DNA from: Candidatus Wallbacteria bacterium
GTDB lineage: Bacteria; Muiribacteriota; UBA9980
Assembly: GCA_022703765.1 (NCBI GenBank)
Contig: JAKJHQ010000001.1
Location: 17,854 to 81,853, forward strand
DNA length: 64,000 bases
Reading direction: 5' to 3'
This document shows, one piece after another, positions 1 to 62,329 of this stretch. Every line of letters begins with the position of its first letter. Positions within the stretch are counted from its first letter, which is position 1. The notes beneath the pieces are model-generated. The model saw only the letters and a list, made by a program, of their open reading frames with translations, was not told the DNA's origin and searched no databases. Made by a program: the position numbers and the translations under genes.

Positions 1-2308
1 TAATAACCTTTTTTGCCTCGGCGCTTTCCGTATCGAAGTCATCAGGAAGATCTGAAATAAGCATCGATAAGGGAGGATAAAATTTAATGTCTTTTTTATT
101 TGGGAGCCATGGTTTTGATTTTAAAATTTTTAAAATTTCAGTTTCTTCTTTTGGATTTTTTGCCGTTGAGTAATAAAACGGATTTATGTTTCGCTTAAAA
201 GCATCGATTATAAATCTCCATAAAACGCAGGACTTAGAGATTGAAATGTTATCTAACAAATTATCAATACCTATAATAACAGGCTCTTTAAATATCGATT
301 TTTTATCGACCGGATTTGTTTTAAATCCAAGTTTATTTAATAAATCAATGTCATTGCTTTTAAAAATGTCCTCATATTCTTCAGATAAAAAGCAAATGTC
401 CGGATTTCCTTCAAAGAACTCTTCTAACATATCGTTACCAGAATACTTCAAAGGCAAAAACAATTCATCAGGCATAAAATAAGACAATTTTCCGGATAAT
501 TTATTCAAGCCGAGAAAGATCCTGGTTTCTTTAAGTTTTTGAATTAAAAGTTGTTTATTAGTAATATCTTTTCGAAAAATTTCAATTATTTTCTTTATAT
601 GGCATATGTTTTGGTCAACGGACGGCAAGACATCTGAATTGTATAAAGGCAAAATAAATTTAATTACTTCATCGATTTCATCAGGCTTTTTAATTCCGAT
701 AAGACTAAAGAAATCTTTCGTTAAATCACTTTCTGATATTCGCCTTTTAACCATCGAAAAATATGTATTGTTTTCATCAAATAAAAACACTTGAGGCCGT
801 TCATTTTCATCAAAAGGTTTAATATGGGAATCATTTTCAAGCCGGATAAATGGTTTATGCCTTAACAAGCCATCAGACGCGCAAGCGGCGGACTTTTTCT
901 GCCATAAAGAAATGCTTTTAGAAAGATAAAAATAAAAGTCAATAACCCATTCGTCGGATTGTTTTAATATAAAATCCATATCGAAAAGATCGGCGAATTT
1001 ATTGCCATCTATATTGTTTACTCGCAGTTTTTGCCTAAAATATAAAGCCAAATCTCTATATTTAAAAATATCCGGATGGATCATCCTGGCATTTATATTT
1101 TTAGTTAGTATATTTAAATTATTGTTTTGAGATAATAAATTTAATAATCTTGAGTTTTCAGCGTAATATGCGTTTTTATATTCGACATATCCCTCGTCAT
1201 CGTTTGGAATCAACTGTTCTTCTGACATAAGTTTTTCAAAAACTTTTTCATACGCGCTTCTAAATCTACTTTTTATAGGAAAATCAGATTCGTTGATAGG
1301 CAAAATATTTAAAAAATCCGGATTTAAAAAACCAAGTTTTTTGATTGATAAGATGCTATCGGATATCAATGTTGATATTTCACTGTTTAATTTTAAATTC
1401 CAAACATCGGCAGGCGGCACATTGTCTCTGGCTGGAGTTGTTTTATAGGGGCCTTGCACTAGAAATTTTAAACGCGTATCTATGTTAGTGGGAAAATAAA
1501 CTACAAGCTTTGAATCACTAATTTCTCTTATAGTTTCCGTTTTTGTTTTATCATCGAATTCAATTTTATAAGCAATTTCAACTTTCAAGTCAAGTTCATT
1601 ATTTTCTTCACTATTTACTTTTCTCTTAAAAACAAGCCATTTTTCGCCAATTTTTTTTGTAATATCCGAAACTATAACGATGCTGGACTGGTCATCGATA
1701 ATATTTACCTTCTTTTCGATTATACCTGCGGAACTTTGATTGATCCGCCATTCAAGTTTTTGAATATAATTTAAAAAAAGGATTGTCCTTACGTCGATTT
1801 CAATCAATTTCTTTTTAATTAAATCATATATTTCGTCTTTTGATCTTTTTTTATGCTCGAATTTGAAAACAAATTTTGTAATCTCCGAATTGTATTGAGT
1901 TTCGATAAGTTCAGGCAAAACTAAATTTTTTATATTAAAACTGTAGGTTTTGGAATAAATTTCTGGAGAATTTGTTATAGCATATACCGACTTAAAACCA
2001 ATTCCAAATTTGCCGATTTTATTGACGTCATCTTTTTTCGTGCTGTTACCGATGCTGGTAATCGAAGCGACGTCTTTAAACAAAAAACTAACACCGTCAT
2101 GAAAAAATTCAAGCCGGTCATCAAACAAAATAAAACTGACCGATTTAGCTTTTTGATCTTCCGCATTTTGAATTAATTCATAAATAAAATGAGAAGGATC
2201 GTCGTATAATCCGGAAAATATTTCTTCAAAATTGAAATTATTGTTAGGTCTTTTTAGAGCGTCAAGATATATTTTTCTATCATTAATCAGCTCATTAAAA
2301 TCATTCAT
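1..2308 (-). CDS. Large sacsin/MORC-like GHKL (Bergerat-fold) ATPase. The N-terminus lies in the window; the C-terminus runs past the window start, so more than 769 aa are present.
   Basis: An open minus-strand frame runs from ATG at 2306-2308 (GGAGG RBS at 2316-2320) to position 1 with no stop. The N-terminus carries Bergerat motifs: FIYELIQNAEDQKA (motif I, ExxxNxxD), HDGVSF (motif II) and GKFGIGFKSVY (motif III, GxxGxG). The six-frame track misses it because the stop lies outside the window. Confidence 0.6.
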   Translation of the reverse strand, partial: MNDFNELINDRKIYLDALKRPNNNFNFEEIFSGLYDDPSHFIYELIQNAEDQKAKSVSFILFDDRLEFFHDGVSFLFKDVASITSIGNSTKKDDVNKIGKFGIGFKSVYAITNSPEIYSKTYSFNIKNLVLPELIETQYNSEITKFVFKFEHKKRSKDEIYDLIKKKLIEIDVRTILFLNYIQKLEWRINQSSAGIIEKKVNIIDDQSSIVIVSDITKKIGEKWLVFKRKVNSEENNELDLKVEIAYKIEFDDKTKTETIREISDSKLVVYFPTNIDTRLKFLVQGPYKTTPARDNVPPADVWNLKLNSEISTLISDSILSIKKLGFLNPDFLNILPINESDFPIKSRFRSAYEKVFEKLMSEEQLIPNDDEGYVEYKNAYYAENSRLLNLLSQNNNLNILTKNINARMIHPDIFKYRDLALYFRQKLRVNNIDGNKFADLFDMDFILKQSDEWVIDFYFYLSKSISLWQKKSAACASDGLLRHKPFIRLENDSHIKPFDENERPQVFLFDENNTYFSMVKRRISESDLTKDFFSLIGIKKPDEIDEVIKFILPLYNSDVLPSVDQNICHIKKIIEIFRKDITNKQLLIQKLKETRIFLGLNKLSGKLSYFMPDELFLPLKYSGNDMLEEFFEGNPDICFLSEEYEDIFKSNDIDLLNKLGFKTNPVDKKSIFKEPVIIGIDNLLDNISISKSCVLWRFIIDAFKRNINPFYYSTAKNPKEETEILKILKSKPWLPNKKDIKFYPPLSMLISDLPDDFDTESAEAKKVI

Positions 2309-2363
2309 TAAAAACCTCCAAAACTTCTAATTTATAGTTAATTACATACGATGAACGGCGGTT

Positions 2364-3050
2364 TTATCTTCTAAACGGATTAATGTCATTGTTAGTGTGC
2401 AAAAAAACGTCGCCAATCGGTCTCACCTTTCTGTAATCTGTTTCATTATTATATCCTCCGAATCTGTTAACAAACATGCCATTTGAGAGCAAATACCACT
2501 TGTAACCGTGCTTCAACTTAGAAATTCCATGTTCTTTCATTAATTCAAGCAACGGTTTGACGCTATTGCTATTAAGATAATTATGTACAGTATTTAAAAC
2601 TTTTCTAATTTGAAGATCTGTTTCGTCAAATTGTTTTAAAAATTGGGATATTTCAACTTCTTCGCCTTCTATGACGTCTTCAATTTCACCATCTTCAACT
2701 TCGCCGTCTTCAATAAATTCATAGTCTAAATTTTTTCCTTCCCAAAAAGGTTGTATATCTCTGTTTGATCTTATAAATACATCGCCCAGTGAAGGAACTT
2801 GAGATACATGTCCCTGCTTTGAGCCATATCTGTTAACAAAATCGCCATTGACTTTTAAAAACCATTTTAAGGCGCCGTTTTCATTGTGATACAAGCAATC
2901 TACATTCATCTTCTCCATTAATTTAATAAGTTTGTGAACGCTTGTGCCTTTCAACTGACATGTGCTTCCGATCGGGACTAAAATTCCAAGATCAAGTAAT
3001 TTTTGAAATCCTATTTCGTGAAAAAATTCTATTGAATCGCGTTTATTCAT
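2364..3050 (-). CDS. Hypothetical protein made of two tandem copies of an unrecognised ~95-aa domain (W.L..G.FVNR[YF]GG ... GDVF...N.I[NQ]PF), joined by an acidic linker.
   Basis: ATG at 3050 with a GGGAGGG RBS. The halves are internally duplicated: KWFLKVNGDFVNRYGSKQGHVSQVPSLGDVFIRSNRDIQPF and KWYLLSNGMFVNRFGGYNNETDYRKVRPIGDVFLHTNNDINPF. The same domain opens the CDS at 6826..7941. Confidence 0.55.
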   Translation of the reverse strand: MNKRDSIEFFHEIGFQKLLDLGILVPIGSTCQLKGTSVHKLIKLMEKMNVDCLYHNENGALKWFLKVNGDFVNRYGSKQGHVSQVPSLGDVFIRSNRDIQPFWEGKNLDYEFIEDGEVEDGEIEDVIEGEEVEISQFLKQFDETDLQIRKVLNTVHNYLNSNSVKPLLELMKEHGISKLKHGYKWYLLSNGMFVNRFGGYNNETDYRKVRPIGDVFLHTNNDINPFRR

Positions 3051-3063
3051 TTCGTCCCTCCCT

Positions 3064-3405
3064 TTACATATTTATAATTTTCCATTGAGCGCTCTGACTG
3101 GGCCTGCCCTCTACATCTTTAACGCGACATTTAATTTTATGCAGGATGATTGGAAAAGTCGGCGTAGAACGACCCCTGGGCCATTTTCCGTTGCTTTCAG
3201 TATATGTCCCTTTTTCTTTATCAAAACAGTGGTCGCTTAACATTCTTCCTATATCAGCATTATATGAATCGCATACTGAAGTATCTTTATCTCTTAAATA
3301 TTGGCCTTTGATGGCAATTATAACGTCAATCGTATAAAATAAAGTCTTGCCTTCATCACGCCATTTTTTGATTAATTCTTCAATAAAAGTAACATGATCG
3401 AACAT
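3064..3405 (-). CDS. Small hypothetical protein of about 113 aa. The start was moved to an internal ATG that has a GAGGTG RBS.
   Basis: ORF 3064..3417. An ATG at 3403-3405 is preceded by GAGGTG. It sits 13 nt upstream of the next gene in the same orientation. No recognisable motif. Confidence 0.4.
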   Translation of the reverse strand: MFDHVTFIEELIKKWRDEGKTLFYTIDVIIAIKGQYLRDKDTSVCDSYNADIGRMLSDHCFDKEKGTYTESNGKWPRGRSTPTFPIILHKIKCRVKDVEGRPSQSAQWKIINM

Positions 3406-3504
3406 ATCGCACCTCACAATTCCGATTTTTATCTAATTTATTTACTCACATAACTAATAATTCTAACTTATTTTAAAATCAAAAAAATTATTAATTTTTT
3501 TAAT

Positions 3505-6825: not shown

Positions 6826-7941
6826 TCACCTTCTTCCGCCCGCGGGCTTTCTTTTTAAATAAGCCTCCAGCGTGACCGCAAGCTGCGGGTTAGCGCAGGC
6901 GACCTTCAGCATCTCATAAAAATAATCGCCTTCGAGCTCCCGGTAGGCGTCAAGTATATCTTTCCAGCCGATAAGCCTTACCCGCGAAGGATTGCAGCCC
7001 GCCGGACGCAATCCTTCTTCATAGTCAGGCGCGCTTCCCTCGCCGCGGGGGGCGCCGGTTAATTCGGCCAGCAATCCGGCTTCAAATTCAGCCGTAGGAG
7101 AAAGAATAAGGCCGACATGCGCAAAGTTTTCGGGCGGCATGGCGTTGCGCTCCATGATAGTATTTATAACAGGCATCTGCCTGCGCATCTGGGCGGCGAG
7201 ATCGGACGCCGTCACGTAGTCGTACATCTTCGCCTCGACCACCACCAGGAATTTTTCGCCGCACGCCGCGCGCAGCAATATAACGATATCCGGCGTGTCG
7301 CGCTTTATATGCCATACTTCCCGCCAATCCAGGGCGGATTCTTTGAGCGAATATTCGGTGTAGAAACATATTTCAGAATTCGAATATTCAGTTTTGATAA
7401 ATTTATCCGGAACGCCGGCCATTTTAAGAAAAATATGCAGACGGCTGAAACGGCCGCCGCAGACTATATTCGGAAATACGCATGAAGTCCAGTAGCGTTC
7501 TTTCCTGTTAAGCGGCAGCGAGTTTATCATATCGTTCATTTCACCGGCGCGCTCGAGATCGGTTGCGCGAAAGGCGCGGGCTGCAGAGCCCGGGAGTTCG
7601 GGGCGCCCGGACGGGTTCAAGCCGCCAGGTTTCTTGCAGTAAAAGGGATTAATGCGCCTGTTGGCCCCTCTAAATACCTCACCCATAGAAGAAACCGATG
7701 TTAGCTTAACCGGTTCGTCATGGCCGCCATAACGGTTTACGAAAACGCCGCCGGACTCCAGCGACCAGTCTTCGCCGAATTCCAGCCCGGAAACGCCTTT
7801 CTGCTCCATAAAAGCCATAAGCGGCGCAACGCTCGCGCCAGTAAGAATAAGCTTTTCACCGTTGATTATCCCGAGCTTCATAAGCTTGCATAGCCCCGCA
7901 GACTCCAAAAATACGGTAATGTTTTCAACAACGCCTTGCAT
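6826..7941 (-). CDS. Fusion of the unrecognised ~95-aa domain (N-terminus) to a PD-(D/E)xK nuclease-fold domain (C-terminus).
   Basis: AAAGGGGTGA RBS. The N-terminal copy is DWSLESGGVFVNRYGGHDEPVKLTSVSSMGEVFRGANRRINPF. The C-terminal half has a textbook motif, TPDIVILLRAACGEKFLVVVEAKMYD (PD ... ExK), with an upstream acidic EICFYTEYS. Confidence 0.6.
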   Translation of the reverse strand: MQGVVENITVFLESAGLCKLMKLGIINGEKLILTGASVAPLMAFMEQKGVSGLEFGEDWSLESGGVFVNRYGGHDEPVKLTSVSSMGEVFRGANRRINPFYCKKPGGLNPSGRPELPGSAARAFRATDLERAGEMNDMINSLPLNRKERYWTSCVFPNIVCGGRFSRLHIFLKMAGVPDKFIKTEYSNSEICFYTEYSLKESALDWREVWHIKRDTPDIVILLRAACGEKFLVVVEAKMYDYVTASDLAAQMRRQMPVINTIMERNAMPPENFAHVGLILSPTAEFEAGLLAELTGAPRGEGSAPDYEEGLRPAGCNPSRVRLIGWKDILDAYRELEGDYFYEMLKVACANPQLAVTLEAYLKRKPAGGRR

Positions 7942-7973
7942 ATTATCACCCCTTTTTAAATTATAAAATAAGA

Positions 7974-8080
7974 CTCATTTTTATTTCATGCGGGCAGGTA
8001 TTAGTGAATAGTGTACAGTGAATAGTGAATAATGAATAGTTAAGGTTGGGGATCGCCCTGCGAGCTTTATATATAAAATA
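7974..8080 (+). repeat. Intergenic repeat family, head module (H), copy 1.
   Basis: tcatttcatgcgggcagg, then tandem agtgaatag-like units, then the ggggatcgccctgcgagc hairpin, then tttatatataaaatat. About 85% identical to 32538-32640. Inverted copies lie at 37420-37523 and 43291-43355. Confidence 0.8.
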
Positions 8081-8288
8081 TAAAAATATTCTACCTACTT
8101 TTAATTTTAGCAAAATATTATAAAAAAGTCAATAATATTCAAAAATATTTTTACCCTTTTTTAAATATTATTACCCCCTTCTGTTTTAAGTTGATTTATC
8201 AATGCATTCCTTTATACCCAAAAGCTCCCACATCAGGCGGCATAATTAAAACGCTTACCATAAAACCATAATTTCAATTTACTGAACG

Positions 8289-8606
8289 CCATAATTGCTG
8301 CGCAGACGCGAGCGAAGCGCGCGTCTGCAAAATAAAAAAACAGAGATGAGCGGAGTAGATTTGAGAAAAAGAAATAATAAATTAGAGCAGAGTAAAGTTG
8401 AGTAGAAATTTTATAGAAAAAGAGAGAAGAGAGAAAGAAAGGCTAAATAAAGTAAAACAAAAAAAAGAGAAAAGCAAACCGAATTAAAGCCGCGTCAGAA
8501 AAGCAGTCGCCGCAAGGCAATAAAGCGTCAGGCAGTTTAGGGGTTGGAAGGGATTTTAAGGGAAGGAAGGGGCCATCGGCACCTTGCCTTCCCTTATCAA
8601 AAAACA
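8289..8606 (+). repeat. Composite structured element, copy 1. It has a perfect 9-bp-stem hairpin, a purine-rich tract of about 180 nt and a long imperfect palindrome.
   Basis: ccataattgctgcgcagacgcgagcgaagcgcgcgtctgcaaaa at 8289-8332. An A/G-rich tract at 8333-8520. aaagcgtcaggc...aggggttggaagggattttaagggaaggaaggggccatcggcaccttgccttcccttatcaaaaaa at 8522-8606. The same modules occur in the same order at 23590-23820. Confidence 0.75.
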
Positions 8607-17834: not shown

Positions 17835-20528
17835 TCAAAGTAAACCTTTAATGCGCTTTATTTCGGTAATTTCCGAAAATGTTATAACCGCGCCTTCGAT
17901 AACGTTTTCCATCGTACGGTAAGGCTGAATGCGCATCTGATACCATTGGCCGTCGGGCGTCTGCACTTCGGACTCTTTCGGTATCAACGTATCCAGAACC
18001 GTCCGGGTATCGTAAACGAGATCGGCGTAACCTTTGATTTTGCAAACTATATCGCTAATGGGCCTTCCTATGTCGGCGGAAATAAGGTTAATGACGCGCC
18101 TGACGGCGGGCGTGAAACGACGCACGCGAAGCTGATGATCGAGAAAAAGCGTGCCTATATTAGTTCCGGCGAGCAGGTTATTCATATCGTTATTCACCCG
18201 GGAAAGATCGGCCACTTTCTGCTGCAGTTCAGTATTTACAGTGGAGAGTTCCTCGTTGACCGATTGAAGCTCCTCTTTTGACGTTTCGAGCTCCTCGTTG
18301 GCCGACTGCAGTTCTTCGTTGACCGATTGAAGCTCTTCGTTGGCGGATTTAAGCTCTTCGTTCGAAGTCTCCATTTCTTCGAGCGTAGAGCGCAAATATT
18401 CTTCCTTGGCCTTCAAACGAAGTTCCAGCTCGTTTATTTTCGCAAGTTCGCCGCCGTCCGGCGGCGAGCCGGCATCTTCTTTTTTTATATAATTTTCGAG
18501 AGCGGTTTCACCGCCGTCTTCTAAAATAATCATAAACAGAGCGGGTGATCCTTCGGCGCAGGGCAGCGGCAGCGGTCTAACTTTTAAATCGACGTTAGTG
18601 AAATTGCCGTTAGTTTTTACTTTAAGCCCCGGATAACTGACCGGGGCGTTATTGGCCGCGGCCTTGTGAAGCGCGCTGGTGAGCTCGTAGCGCAATCCTT
18701 CGCGGGCCATTTTTAATACGTTCACTCCGGCTTCGCCCGGCGACGGTTCAAGATACTTGCCCGTTCGCCCGTGTATATATAAAATATCTCCGCGTTCGTT
18801 AACGATAACGCACGGCGGAGCGTACTGTAAAAGAAGCTCACGCTCGGTCATTTCACGGATTGAAATTTTGGCGGCCGCGACATTTTCGCGGGAACGTTTG
18901 GCCGCGAAATCGCGTTCCGCCATTGGAGTCATAATACTGGCGCGTGCGTGGGCGCCGGAACACGCGGTAATATCTTTTCGCTGATAAAGCTTCCATTTTC
19001 TGTCTATCACCGAAAATAAATCGGCGAAATCTCCTATCGATTCTGAATTTCCCAGAAACAAATAGCCGGAAGCGTTTAAGGCGTAATGAAACATGGGTAT
19101 GATTTTTTTTTGAAGCTCGCCGTCCATATAAATTAAAAGATTGCGGCAGCTTATAATATCTATTTTCGAAAACGGCGGGTCTTTAATAAGGCTCTGCTCC
19201 GAAAATATGAGCATATCGCGTATGATCTTTTTAATGCGGAAAGTCCCGTCTTCGGGATTATGAGTAAAAAAACGCGACAACCTTTCAGGCGAAATATCCG
19301 CCGCGATTGAAGCCGGATATATTCCGGCGCGGGCGGCCTCTATGGCTCGCGCGTCGATATCGGTGGCGAAAATCTGTATCTGGCATGAGCCTTTTAGCCG
19401 TTCGAGATGTTCTTGAAAAATAATAGCTATGGAATAAGCTTCTTCGCCAGTAGAACAGCCGCTCACCCAGACGCGTAAAGCCGTTCCGGAAGGCTTTTTG
19501 CTTAAAACAGATTCGACGATATTTTTATCGAAATTTTCGAAAGCTTCGGCGTCGCGGAAAAAATTAGTTACGCCGATAAGCAGGTCGCGAAAGAGCGCTT
19601 CAACTTCTTCCGGTTTTTTTTGAATGTATTGAACGTAATTTTCGAGCGTTTCTATTTTATTGACCATCATGCGTCTTTCGACGCGGCGTGATATGGTATT
19701 GGATTTATAATGTGAAAAATCATGGCCCGTAAATGAGCGAAGTATAATAAATATTTTTTTAAGAGCGTTTTCCGCTTTAACTTCGGACGCCGCCGAAGGG
19801 ACCAGGCCTTTACCGAAAGCGTTTTTAACGTAAGCGATCAATTGTTCCGGCATCTGCTGGGGAGTTAATATATAATCCACAAGTCCGGTGGCAATGGCGC
19901 TTCTGGGCATTCCGTCGTATTCGGTCGAATCGGGGCTCTGCGCCATGACCATTCCGCCTTCGCCCTTTACCGCGCGGATCCCGTGCATGCCGTCGTTTCC
20001 GGTTCCGGAAAGGACTATGCAAATGGAACGTTCTCGCTGGTCCTGCGCAAGTGAGCGGAAGAAAAAGTCTATAGGCAGCCTCATTCCACGGGGCGAAGAC
20101 GGCTCCATCAAATGAAGCGTACCGTTTAAAAAGGCCATGTCTTTATTAGGCGGAATTATATAGGCGCAGTCGGGCTGGACCTTCATCGCATCCTCGACCT
20201 CAAAAACCTTCATTCGCGTATAGCGTTTAACGAGCTCGGCGAGGATGCTTTTGTGGTCGGGCGCAAGGTGCTGCACGAGTACGAAAGCCATTCCGGTTTC
20301 GACGCCGGGCGGCATGGCTGAAAAAAAAGCCTCGAAAGCGCCGAGCCCTCCGGCCGACGCGCCGATGCCCACTACCGCAAAATTTGAGTTATCGGCGTTT
20401 TTTTTATGATTATCGCCGGTAATAACGGGGCCGCGGCCCGCGACGGATATTGCGGAAATCTTATCATCCGGCGTTATTATCTTTTTCTTCTTTGTAATAG
20501 CACACCTTCTAATCGCTAAATATTTCAA
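17835..20528 (-). CDS. CheB methylesterase / CheR methyltransferase fusion protein with a C-terminal coiled-coil and PAS-like region.
   Basis: CheB core AVVGIGASAGGLGAFEAFFSAMPP ... VLVQHLAPDH ... GTGNDGMHG. CheR region FFRDAEAFENF ... RVWVSGCSTGEEAYSIAII. Heptad repeats EELQSVNEELQSANEEL. The start is uncertain: the ORF opens on TTG and no in-frame ATG occurs before the CheB core. Confidence 0.85.
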   Translation of the reverse strand: MKYLAIRRCAITKKKKIITPDDKISAISVAGRGPVITGDNHKKNADNSNFAVVGIGASAGGLGAFEAFFSAMPPGVETGMAFVLVQHLAPDHKSILAELVKRYTRMKVFEVEDAMKVQPDCAYIIPPNKDMAFLNGTLHLMEPSSPRGMRLPIDFFFRSLAQDQRERSICIVLSGTGNDGMHGIRAVKGEGGMVMAQSPDSTEYDGMPRSAIATGLVDYILTPQQMPEQLIAYVKNAFGKGLVPSAASEVKAENALKKIFIILRSFTGHDFSHYKSNTISRRVERRMMVNKIETLENYVQYIQKKPEEVEALFRDLLIGVTNFFRDAEAFENFDKNIVESVLSKKPSGTALRVWVSGCSTGEEAYSIAIIFQEHLERLKGSCQIQIFATDIDARAIEAARAGIYPASIAADISPERLSRFFTHNPEDGTFRIKKIIRDMLIFSEQSLIKDPPFSKIDIISCRNLLIYMDGELQKKIIPMFHYALNASGYLFLGNSESIGDFADLFSVIDRKWKLYQRKDITACSGAHARASIMTPMAERDFAAKRSRENVAAAKISIREMTERELLLQYAPPCVIVNERGDILYIHGRTGKYLEPSPGEAGVNVLKMAREGLRYELTSALHKAAANNAPVSYPGLKVKTNGNFTNVDLKVRPLPLPCAEGSPALFMIILEDGGETALENYIKKEDAGSPPDGGELAKINELELRLKAKEEYLRSTLEEMETSNEELKSANEELQSVNEELQSANEELETSKEELQSVNEELSTVNTELQQKVADLSRVNNDMNNLLAGTNIGTLFLDHQLRVRRFTPAVRRVINLISADIGRPISDIVCKIKGYADLVYDTRTVLDTLIPKESEVQTPDGQWYQMRIQPYRTMENVIEGAVITFSEITEIKRIKGLL

Positions 20529-20712
20529 AAACGTTCAACCGCGTATAGGCTCTAAAAAAGATTTTATGCCCGGGTTCATAATTTATTTAAATCTTACTCT
20601 TTAATCCGGCATTTGTCAACATAAAATATCAATGCGCATAAATCATTAATAATATTGAAATTATTTTAATTATATGCTATTATCGTTTTTATATTTTTTC
20701 ACGGAGGCGATT

Positions 20713-21258
20713 ATGCAAAGGGAAGAAGCTTTAAATCTGGTCAAAAAATACGTTAAAAACAATAATTTAATCAAGCACATGCTCGCGGCCGAAACCGTAA
20801 TGAAGCATTTCGCCGCGCGCTTCGGCGAAGACGGTTCAGATTGGGCCATAGCGGGTCTTGTCCACGACATAGACGTAGAGATGACTAAAGACTGTCCCGG
20901 GCTGCACGGCAAAAAAAGCGCCGAAATTCTTAAAGCGAACGGTTTTTCCGACAGAATAATAGAAGCGGTGGCCAACCATCCCAAGGACGAACCCATGGGC
21001 GATAATATGTCTAAAATGTTATATTCCGCTGACCAGGTAACCGGCCTGATAGTCGCGGGCGCGCTTATCCATCCGGATAAAAAGCTCGCCGCGATCAACG
21101 GCGATTTCATAATGAAGCGGTTCAATGAAAAGCGGTTCGCGGCGGGCGCCAACCGCGACCGGATAAAGGCCGTCGAAAAAATGGGAATACCGCTTTCGGA
21201 ATTCATAGACGAATCGCTCAAGGCGATGCAGGCGATACATTCGGAAATAGGGCTTTAA
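20713..21258 (+). CDS. HD-domain (HDIG-type) phosphohydrolase family protein.
   Basis: H ... HD metal motif: HMLAAETVMKHFA ... AIAGLVHDIDVE. Start set at ATG 20713, which has a GGAGG RBS; the longer ORF from 20674 lacks one. Confidence 0.75.
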   Translation: MQREEALNLVKKYVKNNNLIKHMLAAETVMKHFAARFGEDGSDWAIAGLVHDIDVEMTKDCPGLHGKKSAEILKANGFSDRIIEAVANHPKDEPMGDNMSKMLYSADQVTGLIVAGALIHPDKKLAAINGDFIMKRFNEKRFAAGANRDRIKAVEKMGIPLSEFIDESLKAMQAIHSEIGL

Positions 21259-21339
21259 GCGTATATTAGCGCGCATTCGATGGCGCCGGGCCATGATTTT
21301 AAAAAAAAGAACATCTAGTATATAAGGAATTGATGATAT

Positions 21340-22338
21340 ATGAAAATCCTGCTGGTATATTTTTCGGCGACCGGAAACACCGCTTTTTACGCCAGAAGTC
21401 TCGCTTCGGCTATCGCGGGGCGAGGCCATCGCTGCGATCTTTTAGACGTAGAAAAGCGTTTCGATTTAAGGGCCGTATGGCATGCGGCCCCCGTGGTGCC
21501 GCGTTATATGATAGAAGCGCAGGCGCGCATTCCGCTGGAGACTCCTGTCGGTTCGCTCGTTTCGAGCGAAAATGAAATAAAAAACGAGGCCTTGATAGAA
21601 GCTTTCGATAAATTCGACAGGTATATCGCCAATTTCGATATAATAGGCTTCGGCTCGCCCGTTTATTTTTTCGAACCGGCGGCGGTATTTTCGAGTTTCA
21701 TTAAACTCATCCCCGTCCAGACCGGAAAAAAGGCGTTCACATTCGCTACGCACATGGAAGGGCCGGTATGGTTCCGTAAAAACATCAGGGAAGCTCTCGA
21801 GGCGAGGGGTTTTCGCATAATAGGGCATGCCGACGATCACATAATTCATACAGAGCTGCTGCCGGTAATGCCTAAATTCATCGCCGGCGAGGGCGTTCAA
21901 AAAGCTTATTTAAGATACCGCCGTCCGAGGATAAATAAGAAAATAAAAGCGTTTTTGGATTCGGTGAATTTAGTAAAAGGCGCCGCTCCCGATCAAATCC
22001 AGCCGGCCGAAGCCGGGCCGGTCCCGCAGATGGACCAGCTCGTAGGCGGCCTGGTAGAAAAGGCGCTTTACGCCACTCTTAAATTTTCGATGGGCAGCCG
22101 CATCATAAAAGAAAAATGCGTCAAATGCGGCCTTTGCGCGAGCAGCTGTCCCATGAAAATGATCCGCATGGACGCCGATACGGGATATCCAGTCAGAACC
22201 AGCCACTGCATGTACTGTCTGCGCTGCATAAACATCTGCCCGGTCGAAGCGGTATCTTACGCGCCGTTAAGCGACGGCAGGGCGCGTTTCAGGGGATTCG
22301 AAAAGCTGGAGGCGGCAGGGCGCATTCCGGCGCGTTAA
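21340..22338 (+). CDS. Flavodoxin-like domain fused to a 2x[4Fe-4S] ferredoxin domain.
   Basis: N-terminus KILLVYFSATGNTAFYARSLA (flavodoxin-like). C-terminus CVKCGLCASSCP ... CMYCLRCINICP (two CxxCxxCxxxCP clusters). AAGGAA RBS. Confidence 0.7.
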   Translation: MKILLVYFSATGNTAFYARSLASAIAGRGHRCDLLDVEKRFDLRAVWHAAPVVPRYMIEAQARIPLETPVGSLVSSENEIKNEALIEAFDKFDRYIANFDIIGFGSPVYFFEPAAVFSSFIKLIPVQTGKKAFTFATHMEGPVWFRKNIREALEARGFRIIGHADDHIIHTELLPVMPKFIAGEGVQKAYLRYRRPRINKKIKAFLDSVNLVKGAAPDQIQPAEAGPVPQMDQLVGGLVEKALYATLKFSMGSRIIKEKCVKCGLCASSCPMKMIRMDADTGYPVRTSHCMYCLRCINICPVEAVSYAPLSDGRARFRGFEKLEAAGRIPAR

Positions 22339-23333
22339 AGATCGTCCCGTGCGCTGAGGCGTTTTTCGCCCTTTTCCAGATAATTCAAAACATAATCCTT
22401 CACGGCGTCTTCGAGCGAATACGTTTCGAGCGTGGCGCCGGCGGAGGCGTTTTCGAATTTAGACATTTCGGCTCTGGTGTAATATTGGTATTTGTCGCGG
22501 ATCTCGACCGGCATATCGATGTAGTTAATCTTCTTCTTCATTTTAAGCGCGCTGAAAATAGCGGACGCCAGCTGGTTCCATGTAGAAGCGGTCCCGCTGC
22601 CTATATTGAATATTCCGTTTTTATGGGGGTTTTCGATGAAAAATCTCACGCGGTCCACGGCATGTTTCACGTATATGAAATCGCGCATCTGTTCGCCGTC
22701 TTTATATTCGGGCATATGCGATTTGAAAAGGCTGATCGACGAGTTTTCTTTTATCTGGTAGTACGCTTTATTTACGAGGCTTCTCATATCTTTTTTATGG
22801 TATTCGTTGGGCCCGAAGACGTTAAAAAATTTAAGGCCGGTGATTTTATCGAGAAGGTTGTTAGAGCGCGCGTACAGATCGAAAAGCTGTTTGGAATAGC
22901 CGTACATATTAAGCGGGCGGAGTTTTTCCATGACGGCGTCATCGTCGGAAAATCCGTTTTCGCCGGCGCCGTATGTGGCCGCGCTGCTGGCATAAATGAA
23001 TCTGATGCCGTTATTAACGCAGTACCATGCGAGAGTTTTGGTATATTCGTAATTATTGTTAATTAAATAGCGGCAGTCGGCTTCGGTTGTAGAAGAGCAC
23101 GCCCCCATATGAATTATGCAATCTATTTTATCGTTTTTAAACGAGCCGTTCCTGATATACTCTATAAAAGCGTCTCTTTCAAGATAATCGCTGAAGGCGA
23201 GCCCGCGCAGGTTCATCCACTTGTTGGAACTGGCGAGGTTATCGACCGCTATTATATTCTTTTCACCCATGGAGTTGAGTTTCCATATTATGGCGCTTCC
23301 GATAAATCCCGCGCCGCCCGTAACTATAATCAT
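22335..23333 (-). CDS. hldD: ADP-L-glycero-D-manno-heptose-6-epimerase.
   Basis: MIIVTGGAGFIGS ... AVDNL ... HMGACSSTTE ... YASSAATYG ... NVFGPNE ... NIGSG matches HldD/RfaD (SDR family) across the whole length. Confidence 0.9.
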   Translation of the reverse strand: MIIVTGGAGFIGSAIIWKLNSMGEKNIIAVDNLASSNKWMNLRGLAFSDYLERDAFIEYIRNGSFKNDKIDCIIHMGACSSTTEADCRYLINNNYEYTKTLAWYCVNNGIRFIYASSAATYGAGENGFSDDDAVMEKLRPLNMYGYSKQLFDLYARSNNLLDKITGLKFFNVFGPNEYHKKDMRSLVNKAYYQIKENSSISLFKSHMPEYKDGEQMRDFIYVKHAVDRVRFFIENPHKNGIFNIGSGTASTWNQLASAIFSALKMKKKINYIDMPVEIRDKYQYYTRAEMSKFENASAGATLETYSLEDAVKDYVLNYLEKGEKRLSARDDL

Positions 23334-23448
23334 TTAACGACCTCTAATCATTGATATTTCATTTATAAATTAACCGCAATATTATGTAATCCATCGCTTA
23401 TTCTATCATATAAAAGCTATTTAATAAAGTTTTTTTTGGGTTCCCTTT

Positions 23449-23536
23449 CATTTTGTATGGGAAAGGGCATCAGTGAAGTGCAGAGTTGATAGTGCATAGT
23501 GGATAGTGAAGGCTGGGGCTCGCCCTGCGAGCTCTA
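23449..23536 (+). repeat. Intergenic repeat family, head module (H), a diverged copy.
   Basis: cagtgaagtgcagagttgatagtgcatagtggatagtgaagg, then ctggggctcgccctgcgagctctat. Compare 7974-8080 and 32538-32640. Confidence 0.7.
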
Positions 23537-23589
23537 TTTGATTAACCGAAAGGTAAATATAAAACCCTTAAGGTAACTAACCCGTAAGC

Positions 23590-23820
23590 CATTATTGCAG
23601 CGCAGACGCGAGCGAAGCGCGCGTCTGCAAAAAAAACATAAATAAAAAGCTGAGCATAAAAGAAATTATAGCAACATAAGAAAAGAGCCTAGCAGAATTA
23701 AAGCGCCGATAGAAAAGCTGGCACTTCACAAAAATAAAGCGTCAGGCTAATCAGGGGTTGGAAGGGATTTTAAGGGAAGGCAGGGGCCATTGGCCCCTGG
23801 CCTTCCCTTATCAAAAAAAG
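23590..23820 (+). repeat. Composite structured element, copy 2 (hairpin, purine-rich tract and palindrome in the same order as 8289-8606).
   Basis: ccattattgcagcgcagacgcgagcgaagcgcgcgtctgcaaaa. A purine-rich tract. aaagcgtcaggc...aggggttggaagggattttaagggaaggcaggggccattggcccctggccttcccttatcaaaaaaag. Confidence 0.75.
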
Positions 23821-31483: not shown

Positions 31484-32536
31484 ATGAAAAAATATACCGA
31501 CGCAATATTATTTTTTTTATATATACGCCGGTTTGCGGTTCTATTAGCCGCAGCGGCTCTTTTAACGGCGTTCGATTCGCCGTTTTTCATCTTTTCCGCC
31601 CGGGCGGAAGGTCTTAAAAACAGCTTTTACCGCGGCGAGCTTTCGAGCGGCGAGATACAAATCTATAACCGCATGGCCGATAAGTTCGACAGTATGCGCG
31701 GCGGCAAATATTCAAAAAAAGAGATATTCGCGGCGGCGGTAAATATTAATACCGGCAAGGTCGTTTTCGCGAGCGACCGCGATTTTTTTTACGGGCGCAA
31801 GATCTCGCCGGGCTCGATTATTAAGATATTCGATTACGCGCTTATATTAAAGCATATCAAAAACGCTTCAAGCGTAAAGTTTTATTGCAAAGACGAAAGC
31901 GTCTCCGGCGGGCGGCGCTACAACTGCTCTCAAAAAGGCGGGCACGGAGAAGTAGATCTGGAGTCGGCCTTTTGCAATTCATGCAATTTATATTTCAAAA
32001 AATTCATGGGTCTTATACCTCGGCGCGAGTTCGCCGGCGCTTTAAAAAGGTGCGGTTTTATAGATGAAGCCGAAGAAAAAGCCCTTTTAAAAGCTTCGAG
32101 CGAGCGTTACCTGCAGGCCGCGATAGGCGACGGCCCCGTAAAAGTTACGCCGCAAAAATTAATCGAACTCGTAACGTTTCTCGCGGCTCCCGATTCGCCG
32201 GCCTCGGCCGATGCGGGCGGATACCGTCTGGTTTTCGACGGCGGCTGCGCCGAAAAAATCAACTTCGCGATGCGCGGCGTCGTAACCCGCGGCACTGCAT
32301 TTAACGCCATGGCCGGAACGGATTGCGCGGCCAAAACCGGTTCAGCGGGGATTTCAGCACGCATAGAAAAGGGGAAAAAGATTATAATAACCAGCGGCGT
32401 TTTTTTATGCTATACTCCGTATATAAATCCAGAATACGCGATCATGACTTTCTGCGAACCGGGGACGGGCGGAATAGAGGCCGCCGGGCTCGCGCGCGAA
32501 TTAATTTCCGCCATAGGCGAACCGCTTATCAAATAG
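31484..32536 (+). CDS. Serine beta-lactamase / penicillin-binding-protein (transpeptidase-fold) family protein.
   Basis: SxxK (SPGSIIK), SxN (CNSCN) and KTG (AAKTGSAG) in the canonical order and spacing. N-terminal hydrophobic segment. Confidence 0.6.
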   Translation: MKKYTDAILFFLYIRRFAVLLAAAALLTAFDSPFFIFSARAEGLKNSFYRGELSSGEIQIYNRMADKFDSMRGGKYSKKEIFAAAVNINTGKVVFASDRDFFYGRKISPGSIIKIFDYALILKHIKNASSVKFYCKDESVSGGRRYNCSQKGGHGEVDLESAFCNSCNLYFKKFMGLIPRREFAGALKRCGFIDEAEEKALLKASSERYLQAAIGDGPVKVTPQKLIELVTFLAAPDSPASADAGGYRLVFDGGCAEKINFAMRGVVTRGTAFNAMAGTDCAAKTGSAGISARIEKGKKIIITSGVFLCYTPYINPEYAIMTFCEPGTGGIEAAGLARELISAIGEPLIK

Positions 32537-32537
32537 G

Positions 32538-32735
32538 CTCTTATTCATTTCATGTGGGCAAGTTTATTAGTGAACAGTGTAGAGTGGATAGTGAATAGTT
32601 AAGGCCGGGGCTCGCCCTGCGAGCTTTATATATAAAATATTAAAAACGCCTTATAGAAATTTCCAAAAGTCCTTTAGTTCTCAACTCTCCACTCTAAACT
32701 CTTAATTTAATTTAAATATTTTACCCATACGAGAT
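32538..32735 (+). repeat. Intergenic repeat element with head (H) and tail (T) modules.
   Basis: ttcatttcatgtgggcaagtttattagtgaacagtgtagagtggatagtgaatagttaaggccggggctcgccctgcgagctttatatataaaatat ... ttagttctcaactctccactctaaactcttaatttaatttaaatattttacccatac. Its reverse complement recurs at 37325-37523. Confidence 0.85.
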
Positions 32736-32890
32736 GAAAAAGAACCATCAAATAGTATATTCAGTTTTAAATATATTCTATGTCTTTTTCTTTAAAAACG
32801 CTCAAAAGCGGGTTTGCATTTTGCGGCAGGATATTGTATAATATATCCATTAAATTTACGGCAGCATATATATCAAACGGGAGGTATGAA

Positions 32891-37239: not shown

Positions 37240-37324
37240 TTTTTACCCTGCGCATAATATAAATTTCATGGTTTTATAATTTTACATCATCCGGCCGGAT
37301 AAATCAATAAATTTGGTTATTTTT

Positions 37325-37523
37325 CATATAGTATGGGTAAAATATTTAAATTAAGTTAAGAGTTCAGAGTGGAGAGTTGAGAACTAAAGGACTTTTGAAA
37401 ATTTCTATAAGGCGTTTTTAATATTTTATATATAAAGCTCGCAGGGCGAGCCCCAGCCTCAACTATTCACTATCCACTCTACACTATCCACTGATAAACT
37501 TACCCACATGAAATGAATAAGAG
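37325..37523 (-). repeat. Intergenic repeat element (T+H modules), an inverted copy of 32538-32735.
   Basis: The reverse complement is about 90% identical to 32538-32735 (agttcagagtggagagttgagaactaaagg ... gctcgcagggcgagccccagcctcaactattcactatccactctacactatccactgataaacttacccacatgaaatgaataagag). Confidence 0.85.
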
Positions 37524-37651
37524 TCATAAATTTATATATAATACCCTGCAAATCTTGACTTATGCGTCAAAAAATGTTATAAATGACATATGATAATTTT
37601 GCGATCGTTTTTTATCGTTAATTTAACGGCCGCGCTTTTTGAGGTGATATA

Positions 37652-39082: not shown

Positions 39083-41476
39083 CTAGCCGTTCATACGCAA
39101 AGAGGCTGTTTTGATTATGCGCGCGGCGGCGAGATGGCCGTTAAATTCGGCTATATAAGCCGCGGTTTTACCGTCGTTATCCTTAGCTTCGGCCGAAGCG
39201 CCGCAATTGATGAGGATTTTTATTATATCTTCGTTTCCGTTGTGGGCGGCCGCTATCAGGGGCGTTTTTCCTCCCGCGTCCGCCGCGTTGCAATCGGCTT
39301 TATTGTTAACGAGCAATTGTACGGCCTCAAAATTATTGGCTGCGGCGCTTTCTATAAGCGGGGTCCTTTCGTCGTTGTCCCTTTCGTTTACGTTTGCGCC
39401 GGAGCTTATAAGGGCTTTCATCGACTGAATGTAGCCTCCGCGCGCCGCTTCCATAAGCGCCGTGCGGCCCTTTACGTCGCGCGCGTTGACGTTCGCGCCG
39501 TGTTTAATGAGATTGAGGGCGATCTCGAAATTGCCGCGAAGGGCCGCTTCCATAAGCGGCGTCCTTTCGTTGTCGTCGGCCGCGTTCACGTCGGCGCCGG
39601 CCTCTATCAGCCTGTTGCAGAAAGAGGTCTTGCCGAGCAGCGCGGCGTCGTGCAGAGCGCTGCGGCCGTTGTCGTCGAGCGCCTTCACGTCGGCGTCGCT
39701 GGCTATAAGCGCTTTTACGATATCCATATTTTCGCCGTAAATCGACGCGGCGGCTTCGTGAAGGGGGGTTTTGCCGTTATCGTCTTTCAGGTTTACGGCC
39801 GCGTTTTTCTTTAAAACGGTCCTTATGAACTCCCAGTTGCCTCGAAGCACGGCGTCGTGCAGAGCGCTTCTTCCTTCGTCGTCGCGGGCGTTTATATCGG
39901 CGCCGTTTTCGACGAGAAGCGAAGTTATCAGAGCGCTGTTGGCAGAAAACGAAGCGGCGGCTTCATGCAGGGCGCTGCGCCCGCTGTCGTCGCGGCTGTT
40001 AATGTTTACGCCCTTTTCGATAAGCACTTTAACGGCCTCGGCGCCGTTTTTGCCCGAAGCGTAGATAAGCGCGGTGCGGCCTTTGTTGTCTTTCGCGTTT
40101 ACGTCGAGGCCTTTATCGATAAGCACTTTTAAAGTTTCTATATTGTTGAGGTTCTCCTGCGAAAATAAAACGGTTTTGCCGTCGTTATCGCGGTTATTCA
40201 CGTTTATTCCGCTTTCTACGAGCATTTTAAATATGGCGTCGTAGCCTTTTTCGCGGGCCAGGGCGAGCGCGGTTTTGCCGTCGTTGTTTTTAACGTCAAC
40301 GTCGGCGCCGGCGGTTATGAGGCCTCTTACCACGTCGTAATGGCCGTTTTCTACGCCCATTATGAGCGCGCTCCTGCCGAGGCGGTCTTTGGCGTCTATA
40401 TTGGCGCAGCGCGTCGCGAGAAGGTTAACCACGTTGGCATGGCCGGCTTCGGCGGCTTTCATGAGCGCCACGGAACGGCAGTTATCGCAAATGTTGGCGT
40501 CGGCGCCTTTTTCGACGAATAACCTCACTATGTCTATATGGCCCTTTTCGGCGGCGCTCATAAGGGCCGTGGCGCAATAATTGGTTTGCGCGTTTATGTC
40601 GGCGCCACGGTTGATAAGCAGTTCGGCGATTTCGGCATGCCCCTTTTCGGCGGCGTACATCAGCGCCGTCGTGCAGCATGTCGTCTTGGCGTTTATGTCG
40701 GCGCCGCTGTGAACGAGGAGCCGCGTTATTTCTTTATTTCCGTGATCGGCCGCGATCATGAGGGCGGTGATCATGGAAGACGAGTATTCGTTGACGTTCG
40801 CGCCGTTTTCCAGAAGCAGCTTTACGTTTTCGCAGTCGTTGCAATCTACGGCCTCCATCAGGGCCGTTCTTCCGTTTTCGTCCCTGAGGTTGACGTCGGC
40901 GTTAAGGTTGATAAGCAGTTTAGCCGTTTCCGTGCGGCCGCATTCGCAGGCGCGCATAAGCGGAGTGCGGCCCCTGGAATCCCTGGCGTTGACGTTGACT
41001 CCGTGATGGACAAGATACCTCACTATGGCGATCTGGCCGCACTCGGCCGTTTCGTTGATGGCCGTTTCCACCCATTTTCTCGCGGGATCGAATTCGTGTC
41101 CGTTTTTTATGAAAAGATCGGCCACGTTGTCGTAGCCGCGCCAGATGGCGAACATCAGAGAGTCCCAACCCTCGCGGTCTTTCATTGTAGAGTCCGCTCC
41201 GCTGGCTAAAAGCATTTCGCATATATCGTAATAACCGCGCCAGGCCGCGAACATAAGCGGGGTCCACCCGTCTTCCGTCGCCGCGTTAACGTTAGCCTCG
41301 TTATCTACGAGCAATTTTACGGTATCGAGATAACCCTTTTTAACGGCTTTATGCAGCGCCGTTTCGCCGTCGATTCCGCAGTAGTCGATATCGGCCTTTT
41401 TTAAAATTAAAACCCTTAATAATTCATTGTTTCCGCGTCTCGCCGCGTCGATTAAATTTTCATTTATCTTTTCCAT
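39083..41476 (-). CDS. Ankyrin-repeat protein with about 24 tandem ANK repeats.
   Basis: Repeated G.T(A/P)L(H/M).AA..G(H/Y)..(I/V)V..L(L/I)..GA(D/N)VNA units throughout. Start set at ATG 41476, which has an AGGAGG RBS; the ORF extends to 41563 without one. Confidence 0.85.
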   Translation of the reverse strand: MEKINENLIDAARRGNNELLRVLILKKADIDYCGIDGETALHKAVKKGYLDTVKLLVDNEANVNAATEDGWTPLMFAAWRGYYDICEMLLASGADSTMKDREGWDSLMFAIWRGYDNVADLFIKNGHEFDPARKWVETAINETAECGQIAIVRYLVHHGVNVNARDSRGRTPLMRACECGRTETAKLLINLNADVNLRDENGRTALMEAVDCNDCENVKLLLENGANVNEYSSSMITALMIAADHGNKEITRLLVHSGADINAKTTCCTTALMYAAEKGHAEIAELLINRGADINAQTNYCATALMSAAEKGHIDIVRLFVEKGADANICDNCRSVALMKAAEAGHANVVNLLATRCANIDAKDRLGRSALIMGVENGHYDVVRGLITAGADVDVKNNDGKTALALAREKGYDAIFKMLVESGINVNNRDNDGKTVLFSQENLNNIETLKVLIDKGLDVNAKDNKGRTALIYASGKNGAEAVKVLIEKGVNINSRDDSGRSALHEAAASFSANSALITSLLVENGADINARDDEGRSALHDAVLRGNWEFIRTVLKKNAAVNLKDDNGKTPLHEAAASIYGENMDIVKALIASDADVKALDDNGRSALHDAALLGKTSFCNRLIEAGADVNAADDNERTPLMEAALRGNFEIALNLIKHGANVNARDVKGRTALMEAARGGYIQSMKALISSGANVNERDNDERTPLIESAAANNFEAVQLLVNNKADCNAADAGGKTPLIAAAHNGNEDIIKILINCGASAEAKDNDGKTAAYIAEFNGHLAAARIIKTASLRMNG

Positions 41477-41970
41477 CTCGAGCCTCCTTTCGATTATAAT
41501 TTTCCGAACTGTTTTTAATAATATAATAAAGCCGGAATGCGCGCCGAAAAAACGCGCAATCAATAATTACGCCCGCGCAAATAAATTATGAAAAAGGAAT
41601 ATTGAGATTAGGCGATTCTTTAGGGGATAGACAATATATAAGCCGGCCGGGGCGGCACGCAATCAGACGATCTATAAAACCGAAGAGAAGCGCAATATTA
41701 CATTTTTTGAATATAACGCGCGGCCCGTTTATTAATTTTATGCCTGAAACGCTCATATATTTACCCCCTTTCCCGAAAAAGGAAAAGAAAGGGATTGTTA
41801 AAGAAAAAATCAATTCCCTATATTTATTGTATCAATAATTCCGGCATTTGTCAAAACAAAATCGATATTTTTTATTTTATTTTTTTTACTTACCTTTTTC
41901 AATGATTTTATGGTATAATGTCTTTAATCAATATTTAATTAAATTTCTTTATATAAGCAAAAGGTAATTT

Positions 41971-43308: not shown

Positions 43309-43355
43309 CCATTCACTATCCACTCTACACTATACACTGATACACATCCCACACG
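43291..43355 (-). repeat. Partial copy of the repeat head module, in inverted orientation.
   Basis: ggcgagccccagcattaaccattcactatccactctacactatacactgatacacatcccacacgaaa, compared with 37440-37520. Confidence 0.7.
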
Positions 43356-43441
43356 AAAAGAAAAAAAGCCTGTTTTTAAATCCCGCTTAAAAAAAAACAA
43401 AAATATCTTTTAAAAAAAATAAAATTATGATATAATTTTAA

Positions 43442-62194: not shown

Positions 62195-62256
62195 CATAAA
62201 ATCTCTCCCTTTCATAATTCGGTATTTTTAGTTTATTTTTATTTTTGGTTCTTTCT

Positions 62257-62320: not shown

Positions 62321-62329
62321 GGCGGCCGC

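Follow-up and report, generated by a model that had tools for sequence, protein, structure and literature searches.

Repetitive extragenic palindromic (REP) units are ~35 nt long and are arranged in inverted pairs with linkage to a RAYT gene, and palindrome-associated transposable elements (PATEs) of the IS200/IS605 type carry similar subterminal hairpins at both ends, which are recognised by one Y1 transposase. The BOX elements of pneumococci, a system attributed to Martin et al. 1992 and Croucher et al. 2011, reportedly consist of the modules boxA, boxB (in n copies) and boxC. The present analysis concerns two intergenic loci, A and B, in a 64,000-nt stretch of a Candidatus Wallbacteria genome (contig JAKJHQ010000001.1, positions 17,854 to 81,853; hereafter the window). 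The explanation that accounts best for each locus is a mosaic, in which the left half of a miniature inverted-repeat transposable element (MITE) resembling the ISL3 family of insertion sequences (IS) stands beside a separate unit, here named U, that would act as a structured RNA of the + strand. This explanation as a whole is given a probability of about 0.6, its mosaic and MITE parts being much firmer than its RNA part.

Of these systems, BOX is the one to which U is likened. Like BOX, U is multicopy, intergenic, modular and independent of gene orientation, has a predicted stable RNA fold, and possesses a conserved module at each end, the 5' one able to pair with the 3' one in a predicted closing helix (96% paired) around a middle of variable length (63-324 nt), a likeness that is one of analogy and not of homology. 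U differs from BOX in lacking sequence similarity and convincing inverted termini, in its host, which belongs to an uncultured candidate phylum, in its middle, which is a purine-rich and slippage-prone tract rather than a defined boxB, and in carrying a mirror repeat. As in the REP units and bacterial interspersed mosaic elements (BIMEs) of E. coli and in REP doublets forming hairpins (REPINs), the palindromes of U are intergenic, have compensated stems, form mosaics with other motifs and occur at many loci, but U, which is asymmetric, has ten times their length, and no partner resembling RAYT was seen. U shares with PATEs the absence, in the flanks inspected, of a target duplication and of long inverted termini, as well as hairpins near both ends, a sharp right boundary ~9 nt past the hairpin and TTGAT at the left boundary. 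Its two hairpins are however unrelated and the left one lies ~70 nt inside the unit, and the survey of neighbouring genes found no TnpA, TnpB or IscB gene beside any copy.

Two repeat families at each locus

The initial annotation described two intergenic stretches with a common module order, at 7974-8606 and 23449-23820, and both proved to be real: their mean column identity in a pairwise alignment is 72%, with blocks of identity in the tandem units, the small hairpin, a 27-nt hairpin and the final ~90 nt. The 27-nt hairpin, with its 9-bp stem (GCAGACGCG-AGCGAAGCG-CGCGTCTGC), is identical at 8302-8328 and 23602-23628, and the final ~86 nt of the two loci are 91% identical. This resemblance is far above chance. 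The first module (M1) recurs at five places in the window and at 51 loci in three related metagenome-assembled genomes (MAGs), and the last module at 78 metagenome loci.

Several modules were present as described, with corrections of detail. The tandem units have a period of 7 (AGTGnAT) according to Tandem Repeats Finder (TRF), and not of 8-9; the small hairpin occurs at both loci, with an imperfect stem in copy A (GGGGATCGCC); and the purine-rich tract, put at 150-180 nt, measures 212 nt (75% purine) at locus A and 126 nt (69% purine) at locus B. The long palindrome lies at 8557-8596 and 23771-23810, but the preceding GGGGTTGGAAGGGA, which had been counted as part of it, falls outside and is a mirror repeat of its 5' arm. 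The two large hairpins are, as had been claimed, not simple terminators, since neither is followed by a T-run on either strand. The small hairpin is followed by TTTATATAT in canonical copies and was flagged by the scan as terminator-like in copy B.

The description of these modules as a single composite element did not survive the comparison with other loci (retrieved loci are designated by L numbers), as they split into two independent families. Within 1.2 kb upstream of U the M1 hairpin was found in only 7 of 73 copies (~10%, in a sample seeded on M5, the terminal hairpin of U), and at L046 U stands beside a gene without M1. Close strains show the two families varying separately. L107 is 98.3% identical to window positions 20694-23438, its identity ending exactly at the start of M1; it lacks M1 at locus B and carries there a different U, in which the stem of M3, the first hairpin of U, is CGGGAC/GTCCCG. 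In L087, which is 97.5% identical around locus A, the MITE is a separate insertion ~350 nt from U, with its own right end and its own target duplication. The spacer between the MITE half and U in copy A (8091-8232) is ordinary AT-rich intergenic DNA without repeat matches and is also present in L087. U is a unit independent of M1, and M1 is an optional neighbour.

The copies of U found at orthologous sites in relatives have flanks that are 80-94% identical, and they have diverged at about the rate of those flanks. Gene conversion among U copies was rejected, orthologous pairs being no more alike than their flanks. Since orthologous copies age with their flanks, yet a near-identical strain has a different U at locus B, U is both long-lived and replaceable. 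No empty site was found among the orthologous flanks of the retrieved loci, every one of which carries U because the loci were chosen on U.

Many related loci hold, in the interval from M1 to U, a repeat of yet another family, MITE-2, of which the window has no copy. Its inverted ends are long (TTTTAGCTGGTAGTTTGGGCAGGGCGCCAGAyAATTTTTT ... AAAAATTwTsTCTGGCCCCTGCTAcGAGCTTAAAA) and its core is rich in GC; it was located at L017 3560-3760 (-), L020 4900-5060, L047 2560-2860 (-) and L051 1990-2200, as well as in L009, L036, L045, L082, L105, L106, L109, L118 and L121.

A MITE with ISL3-like ends

M1 comprises a terminal sequence, heptamers and a small GC hairpin, and a repeat search placed it at 7964-8090, 23438-23534, 32536-32645, 37416-37525 (-) and 43291-43362 (-). 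At 32536-32746 and 37315-37525 it is joined to a second module, the right half M2, which also stands alone at 62245-62322. In M2 the start of M1 is repeated in inverted and diverged form: once the right ends are reverse-complemented, they align with the left ends over ~75 nt, heptamers included, at a mean column identity of 69%, and the right halves of full copies carry the inverted heptamer counterpart AGAGTnn. The complete element, here called MITE-1, is ~210 bp long (174-227 bp among 21 distinct full copies), contains no open reading frame (ORF) and is bounded by terminal inverted repeats of ~25 nt with the termini GGCTCTT / GGTTCTT. An 8-bp duplication flanks 17 of the 21 full copies, perfect (8/8) in 11 and at 7/8 in six, whereas flanks paired from different copies reach at least 7/8 in only 1.4% of trials; the target sites are 87% A+T.

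When species-representative genomes were scanned, the small hairpin turned up at 52 loci, all but one of them (51) within three related uncultured MAGs, ADurb.Bin243, UBP16_UBA6123 and JPNA_metabat.86, to which NCBI assigns no named phylum. The joined M1 and M2 unit accounts for ~30 of the scanned loci, and many M1 loci of the three MAGs are located at contig ends.

MITE-1 was likened to the ISL3 family because its termini and its 8-bp duplication match those of that family, the ~25-nt terminal inverted repeats and the AT-rich character of the duplications being further points of likeness. The ISL3-family element ISArsp7, for example, has a left inverted repeat (IRL) beginning GGCTCTTCGCGG..., the end GGCTCTTC and an 8-bp duplication (PMC6305408). 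M1 and M2 together form a non-autonomous, non-coding, multicopy ISL3-like MITE, so that the earlier suggestion of a non-autonomous mobile element holds for the heptamer and small-hairpin module. MITE-1 differs from ISL3 elements in its arrays of 4-6 subterminal heptamers and its internal GC hairpin, neither of which is to our knowledge a described ISL3 feature, and in the presence of only its left half at loci A and B. The heptamers are probably multiple transposase-binding sites.

At locus A the M1 left half (7964-8090, +), which aligns with the left ends of full copies, consists of the left terminal inverted repeat GACTCATTTTTATTTCATGCGGG, an array of the heptamer TAGTGAA (8002-8040, +; 5.6 copies, TRF period 7), the small GC hairpin GGGGATCGCCCTGCGAGC with its imperfect stem (8048-8065, +) and the tail TTTATATATAAAATAT. 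The M1 left half at locus B (23438-23534, +) comprises the left repeat GGGTTCCCTTTCATTTTGTATGGG, the heptamers (23471-23512) and the hairpin (23515-23532), and is fused directly to U. The right half was lost by deletion at both loci: the right end is absent at locus B, and for locus A it is seen in the ortholog L087, which has a mini-MITE complete at both ends and flanked by the duplication TAAAATAA/TATAATAA, together with ~100 nt missing from the window. The two full copies in the window are C (32536-32746, +), flanked by the 8-bp duplication ATCAAATA, and D (37315-37525, -), flanked by AAATTTAT and 94% identical to C. Copy F (62245-62322, -) is a solo right half, of which the ortholog L037 holds the full element with the duplication TTAAAAAA; the near-identical strains L087 and L037 reveal the origin of the MITE-1 halves.

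The truncated copy E of M1 (43291-43362, -) overlaps the stop codon of a HAMP-domain gene (41971-43308). The last six codons of this gene and its stop (43291-43308) come from MITE-1, and the insertion therefore remodelled the C-terminus of the encoded protein. In related loci, solo M1 halves at L024 1830-1896 (-) and L026 4183-4272 stop ~30-60 nt from the start codon of a co-oriented gene, and M1 may influence the expression of adjacent genes. Two promoter-like sites near locus A face toward the gene at 6826-7941 (-). One, at 8132-8104 (-), is a good TTGACT-17-TAAAAT site in the AT-rich spacer, from which transcription would cross the reverse complement of the MITE half; the other, at 7989-7960 (-), is a hybrid site whose -35 element (ATGAAA) lies within the MITE terminal repeat.

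Architecture and conserved structure of U

U occurs only twice in the window, and the many copies in relatives that the initial annotation had proposed to count were found in metagenomes: a scan with a 23-nt seed from the last module returned 78 loci in anaerobic-digester and activated-sludge assemblies, among them at least 51 distinct full-length copies of 266-526 nt. The ends of U are sharp in the aligned copies, and no target duplication flanks any copy inspected. Neither the U nor the MITE-1 motif is present in viral contigs.

All parts of U follow a fixed order. A 5' region (aAGTTGATTaACC ... ATAAAAC ... TTGACTTACC ... box GCCATTATTGC) leads into the GC hairpin M3 and an A-run, which are followed by an A/G-rich variable spacer, a weak small hairpin and the box AATAAAGCGTCAGGC, and then by the purine segment R1 (GGGGTTGGAAGGGA) and TTTT, the hairpin M5, whose 5' arm is purine and whose 3' arm is pyrimidine, and ATC with 5-8 A. 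The boxes GCCAUUAUUGC and AAUAAAGCGUCAGGC are invariant. The purine tract ranges from 63 to 324 nt among the 51 copies and contains tandem 13-14-nt units in L017 and L051.

Copy A is complete at 8233-8604 (+), where nhmmer recognises a 5' domain at 8242-8332 (E = 2e-18) and a 3' domain at 8481-8602 (E = 2e-32). Its parts, all on the + strand, are the box GCCATAATTGC (8288-8298), whose consensus GCCATTATTGC is near-invariant in the 51 copies; M3 (8302-8328), a 9-bp stem followed by an A-run; the variable purine tract (8329-8518; 75% purine), which contains the weak small-hairpin region GCCGCGTCAGAAAAGCAGTCGCCGC; the near-invariant box AATAAAGCGTCAGGC (8519-8533), retained even in the diverged copies L057 and L111b; R1 (8540-8553), which mirrors the 5' arm of M5 and is also the 3' strand of the predicted closing helix; M5 (8557-8596); and the tail ATCAAAAAA (8596-8604), which ends at the sharp right boundary. 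Copy B is likewise complete (23536-23819, +), with a 5' domain at 23536-23633 (E = 2.5e-22) and a 3' domain at 23695-23816 (E = 1.5e-38), and has M3 at 23602-23628 (+), the purine tract at 23629-23732 (+), the mirror segment R1 at 23754-23767 (+) and M5 at 23771-23810 (+).

Beyond these boundaries, the sequence ATATTGAATTTTATTTTA is common to the 20-30 nt after the A tail in L047, L052, L079, L105 and L109, which are different loci; U may have its right border further out in a subfamily, or it may adjoin another repeat there. At L130 1520-1570 (-) and L131 300-357, where the M1 hairpin is missing, repeats similar to the heptamers (TTAGTGA / TTAGTGT) immediately precede U, which hints at a further tie between heptamer arrays and the left border of U.

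The suggestion that selection acts on structure was borne out by compensatory changes in both large hairpins. The consensus fold, judged from 24 aligned short copies, has 95.6% of its cells paired, compared with 30-45% when the partners are slid, and eight pairs change on both sides, a number reached by none of 500 shuffles (mean 2.5). M3 has five covarying pairs and, across all loci, at least eight fully complementary versions of its outer stem (GCAGAC/GTCTGC, GCAAAC/GTTTGC, GCATAC/GTATGC, GCATTC/GAATGC, GCAGCC/GGCTGC, GCAGGC/GCCTGC, CGGGCC/GGCCCG and CGGGAC/GTCCCG), and L111 has an unrelated hairpin at its position. In M5, the pair 324:343 is GC in 17 copies, CG in three, AU in two, and UA and UG in one each. 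The diverged copies L057 and L111b have wholly different yet perfectly paired versions of both M3 and M5. Both hairpins of U are kept by compensatory substitutions. The small hairpin within U (CCGGC-AGAAAA-GCCGG) was treated as weak, because only 73% of its cells are paired.

A third helix is predicted between the 5' region (YYRACU..CC) and GGGGUUGG, with 96% of cells paired. The 5' side of this closing helix varies only as Y/Y/R facing invariant G/G/U, so that pairing is kept, and the same pairing would fail on the opposite strand. Compensatory changes were also noted by eye, from C:G to U:A in L057, and from C:G to A:U and A:U to U:A in L111b. Purines make up 66-78% of the spacer in all 51 copies and always on the same strand, and the M3 stems include four G·U intermediates on the + strand and none of the reverse kind (A·C). 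The structure and the composition bias of U are specific to the + strand. Coding potential, in the shape of a 23-codon frame that crosses M5 on the - strand, was rejected: the M5 loop differs in length by 1-2 nt among copies, and the changes are compensatory.

The purine arm of M5 is preceded by a segment that mirrors it instead of complementing it. Canonical copies have GGGGTTGGAAGGGA as the mirror of AGGGAAGG-X-AGGGG, and the diverged copies have mirror pairs of their own, GGGAGAGATTGGGGAG and GAGGGGAAAGAGAGGG in L057 and GGGATAGGGATGGGG and GGGGAAGGGAAAGGG in L111b. Every G in these correspondences is set against a G, and every A against an A or a T. The matches number 14/18 in canonical copies such as copy B (0/2000 shuffles of the upstream segment do as well), 17/20 in L057 (0/2000) and 16/18 in L111b (5/2000). 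The mirror co-varies with the hairpin in three sequence lineages, and ordinary base pairing gives no explanation for a mirror repeat that changes with its hairpin.

Homopurine mirror repeats are said, after Mirkin and Frank-Kamenetskii, to form H-DNA or intramolecular purine-motif triplexes. U resembles such sequences in having R1, a short loop and R2 (the purine arm of M5) on one strand as mirror images with G:G and A:A/T correspondences, and in carrying the pyrimidine partner of R2 on the same strand, which makes an R·R-Y fold-back geometrically possible; its 3' domain combines purine mirror symmetry with an available pyrimidine complement. It differs in that its mirror belongs to a repeated element and co-varies with a hairpin, and in that the segment is also predicted to lie in an ordinary helix. 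As read from the sequence, the pattern matches the code of an antiparallel purine-motif triple helix, which the R1-loop-R2-loop-Y2 geometry would permit, and the G-tracts of U could form a quadruplex. The closing helix and the triplex would be mutually exclusive, because R1 is a strand of both. The further proposal that U represents a new multicopy class of structured RNA or single-stranded DNA, whose 3' domain switches between the closing helix and an R·R-Y triplex or G-quadruplex, made when the conserved mirror-repeated G-tracts fold back on M5, and is kept by three-way covariation, is speculative and judged improbable.

Structured RNA, mobile DNA or regulatory signal

U is most likely a multicopy structured RNA element. 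If it is transcribed on the + strand and acts as RNA, the molecule would start near TGTTGACTTACC and end near ATCAAAAAAA. A candidate promoter, TTGATT-N17-TAAAAC, is conserved with a fixed spacing and ends ~7 nt before the closing helix. The 5' region would pair with the segment before the last hairpin and so close the molecule, the purine spacer would remain single-stranded and flexible, and the 5' hairpin would stabilise a structure that includes the 3' hairpin domain. The search of Rfam proposed in the initial annotation gave no match at the gathering threshold in the whole window, and a permissive scan of copy B gave only sub-threshold matches, the best of which was ar35 (21.4 bits against a threshold of 45, E = 0.066). 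A full-text search of the literature with the motifs and the names of the MAGs found no paper.

Several results weigh against this explanation. The candidate promoter is weak, its -10 box lacking the final T, and was not called by a promoter scan; no intrinsic terminator was called at the 3' end of U, where M5 is followed by AUCAAAAAAA. Both strands of U fold equally well (z ~ -5.4 and -5.8), and the thermodynamic strand call is therefore uninformative. The closing helix is missed by some single-sequence folds, including those of diverged copies, and its invariant 3' partner lies partly within the sequence used as search seed; no variation was seen in the predicted pairs GCC:GGC and UGC:GCG, which do not form in L111b. 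Purine-motif triplexes are favoured in DNA over RNA, and the triplex code, if anything, points to DNA. For the MITE part, no transposase gene with MITE-1 ends was found in the retrieved loci, no dedicated genome-wide search having been made. For the mosaic, U has each of its seven M1 neighbours on the upstream side and in its own orientation, which independent insertion does not fully account for, and the M1-U junction GCGAGCTCTATTTGATT is identical at three different loci (window copy B, L048 and L051).

Those last two results are also what favours a single composite mobile element or long RNA reaching from the heptamers to the terminal palindrome. The modules do share a common order at the two window loci and at seven further MAG loci, and M1, when present, is always upstream and co-oriented (seven cases, against 0/0/0 for the other arrangements). 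This reading is nevertheless largely refuted and very improbable, as 66 of 73 U copies are without M1, ~30 M1 copies are paired instead with M2 in a 210-bp MITE that has its own duplications, the distance between M1 and U runs from 87 to 642 nt with unrelated inserts between them, and the two vary independently between the near-identical strains L107 and L087.

A stronger contender, though still the less likely one, is that U is a non-autonomous DNA mobile element, whose hairpins and mirror repeat (the latter as H-DNA or a single-strand triplex) would serve at the DNA level as recognition sites for a transposase or recombinase acting in trans, in the manner of REPIN/RAYT, IS200/IS605-type or IS110-type systems, with transcription being incidental. 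It would account for the number of distinct copies with sharp ends, for 5'-truncated copies with an intact 3' end (L086 and L088), for the different U at the same site in a 98.3%-identical strain, for the other MITEs nested around U and for the conserved homopurine mirror repeat that obeys the G:G, A:A/T code; and G·T is likewise the best-tolerated mismatch in single-stranded DNA. Set against this are the closing helix, which in most copies has 3-4 G·U among its 8 pairs and would be implausible in DNA, the strand-specific purine bias, the divergence of orthologous copies at about the rate of their flanks and the absence of any recurrent neighbouring protein, the only cluster found being spurious 65-95-aa ORFs inside MITE-2. 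The absence of a target duplication in the copies inspected tells against it as well, and the only inverted termini are the short, imperfect TTGAT(T)AA ... TTATCAA; that repeat counts in favour of a DNA element, but U fails as a classical MITE. An IS200/IS605-type element was rejected because M3 (GCAGACGCGCGC...) and M5 (AAGGGAAGG...) share no similarity, in contrast to the ends of such elements. SINE-like (short interspersed nuclear element) retroposition, considered for the A tail and the 5'-truncated copies, was also rejected, no flanking direct repeats being found in the copies inspected.

The possibility that U is a cis-acting signal for its neighbours (a leader, an attenuator, a terminator or an mRNA-stabilising 3' structure) is remote, even though U is always intergenic and has strong hairpins. 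U has the orientation of its downstream gene in 27 cases and the opposite one in 23, the counts for the upstream gene being 16 and 22, and the neighbouring genes are unrelated to each other; because orientation is random and no protein family recurs, a role as leader, attenuator or 3' stabiliser is unlikely, and the missing U-run after the hairpins on either strand argues against a terminator. TTGACA-N17-TAnAAT promoters for the downstream gene lie 15-25 nt after U in L051, L066, L088, L108 and L123, which speaks in favour of such a role. A sigma-54 promoter at the box GCCATTATTGC was rejected by eye, the -24 element being absent. Of the explanations considered, the structured RNA is preferred, and by analogy with BOX it would most likely be a selfish or domesticated repeat rather than a regulator of adjacent genes.

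Other features of the window lie apart from both families. Positions 1-3500 form a low-GC island (28-34% GC, compared with 42-56% over the next 4.5 kb and 46% in the whole window) and contain no ORF of at least 80 aa at 483-2363, and both properties suggest foreign or decayed DNA. A large gene at 39083-41563 (-) contains 99-nt (33-aa) repeats in a long row, as would fit a repeat protein of the ankyrin type, and an in-frame 21-nt / 63-nt tandem repeat is present at 18247-18393 inside the 897-aa gene at 17835-20528 (-).

Dozens of intergenic repeats that break assemblies of this digester candidate phylum can now be sorted into named families, and many contig ends of related MAGs fall inside them. 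MITE-1 is an ordinary addition to a known class. U is the more interesting of the two, as a long element of many copies for which neither Rfam nor the searched literature has an entry. Transcription of U would make it a bacterial RNA family that is new and unusually folded; action at the DNA level would make it a repeat composed of motifs prone to non-B DNA structures. The mirror repeat could make U more than a new structured intergenic repeat.

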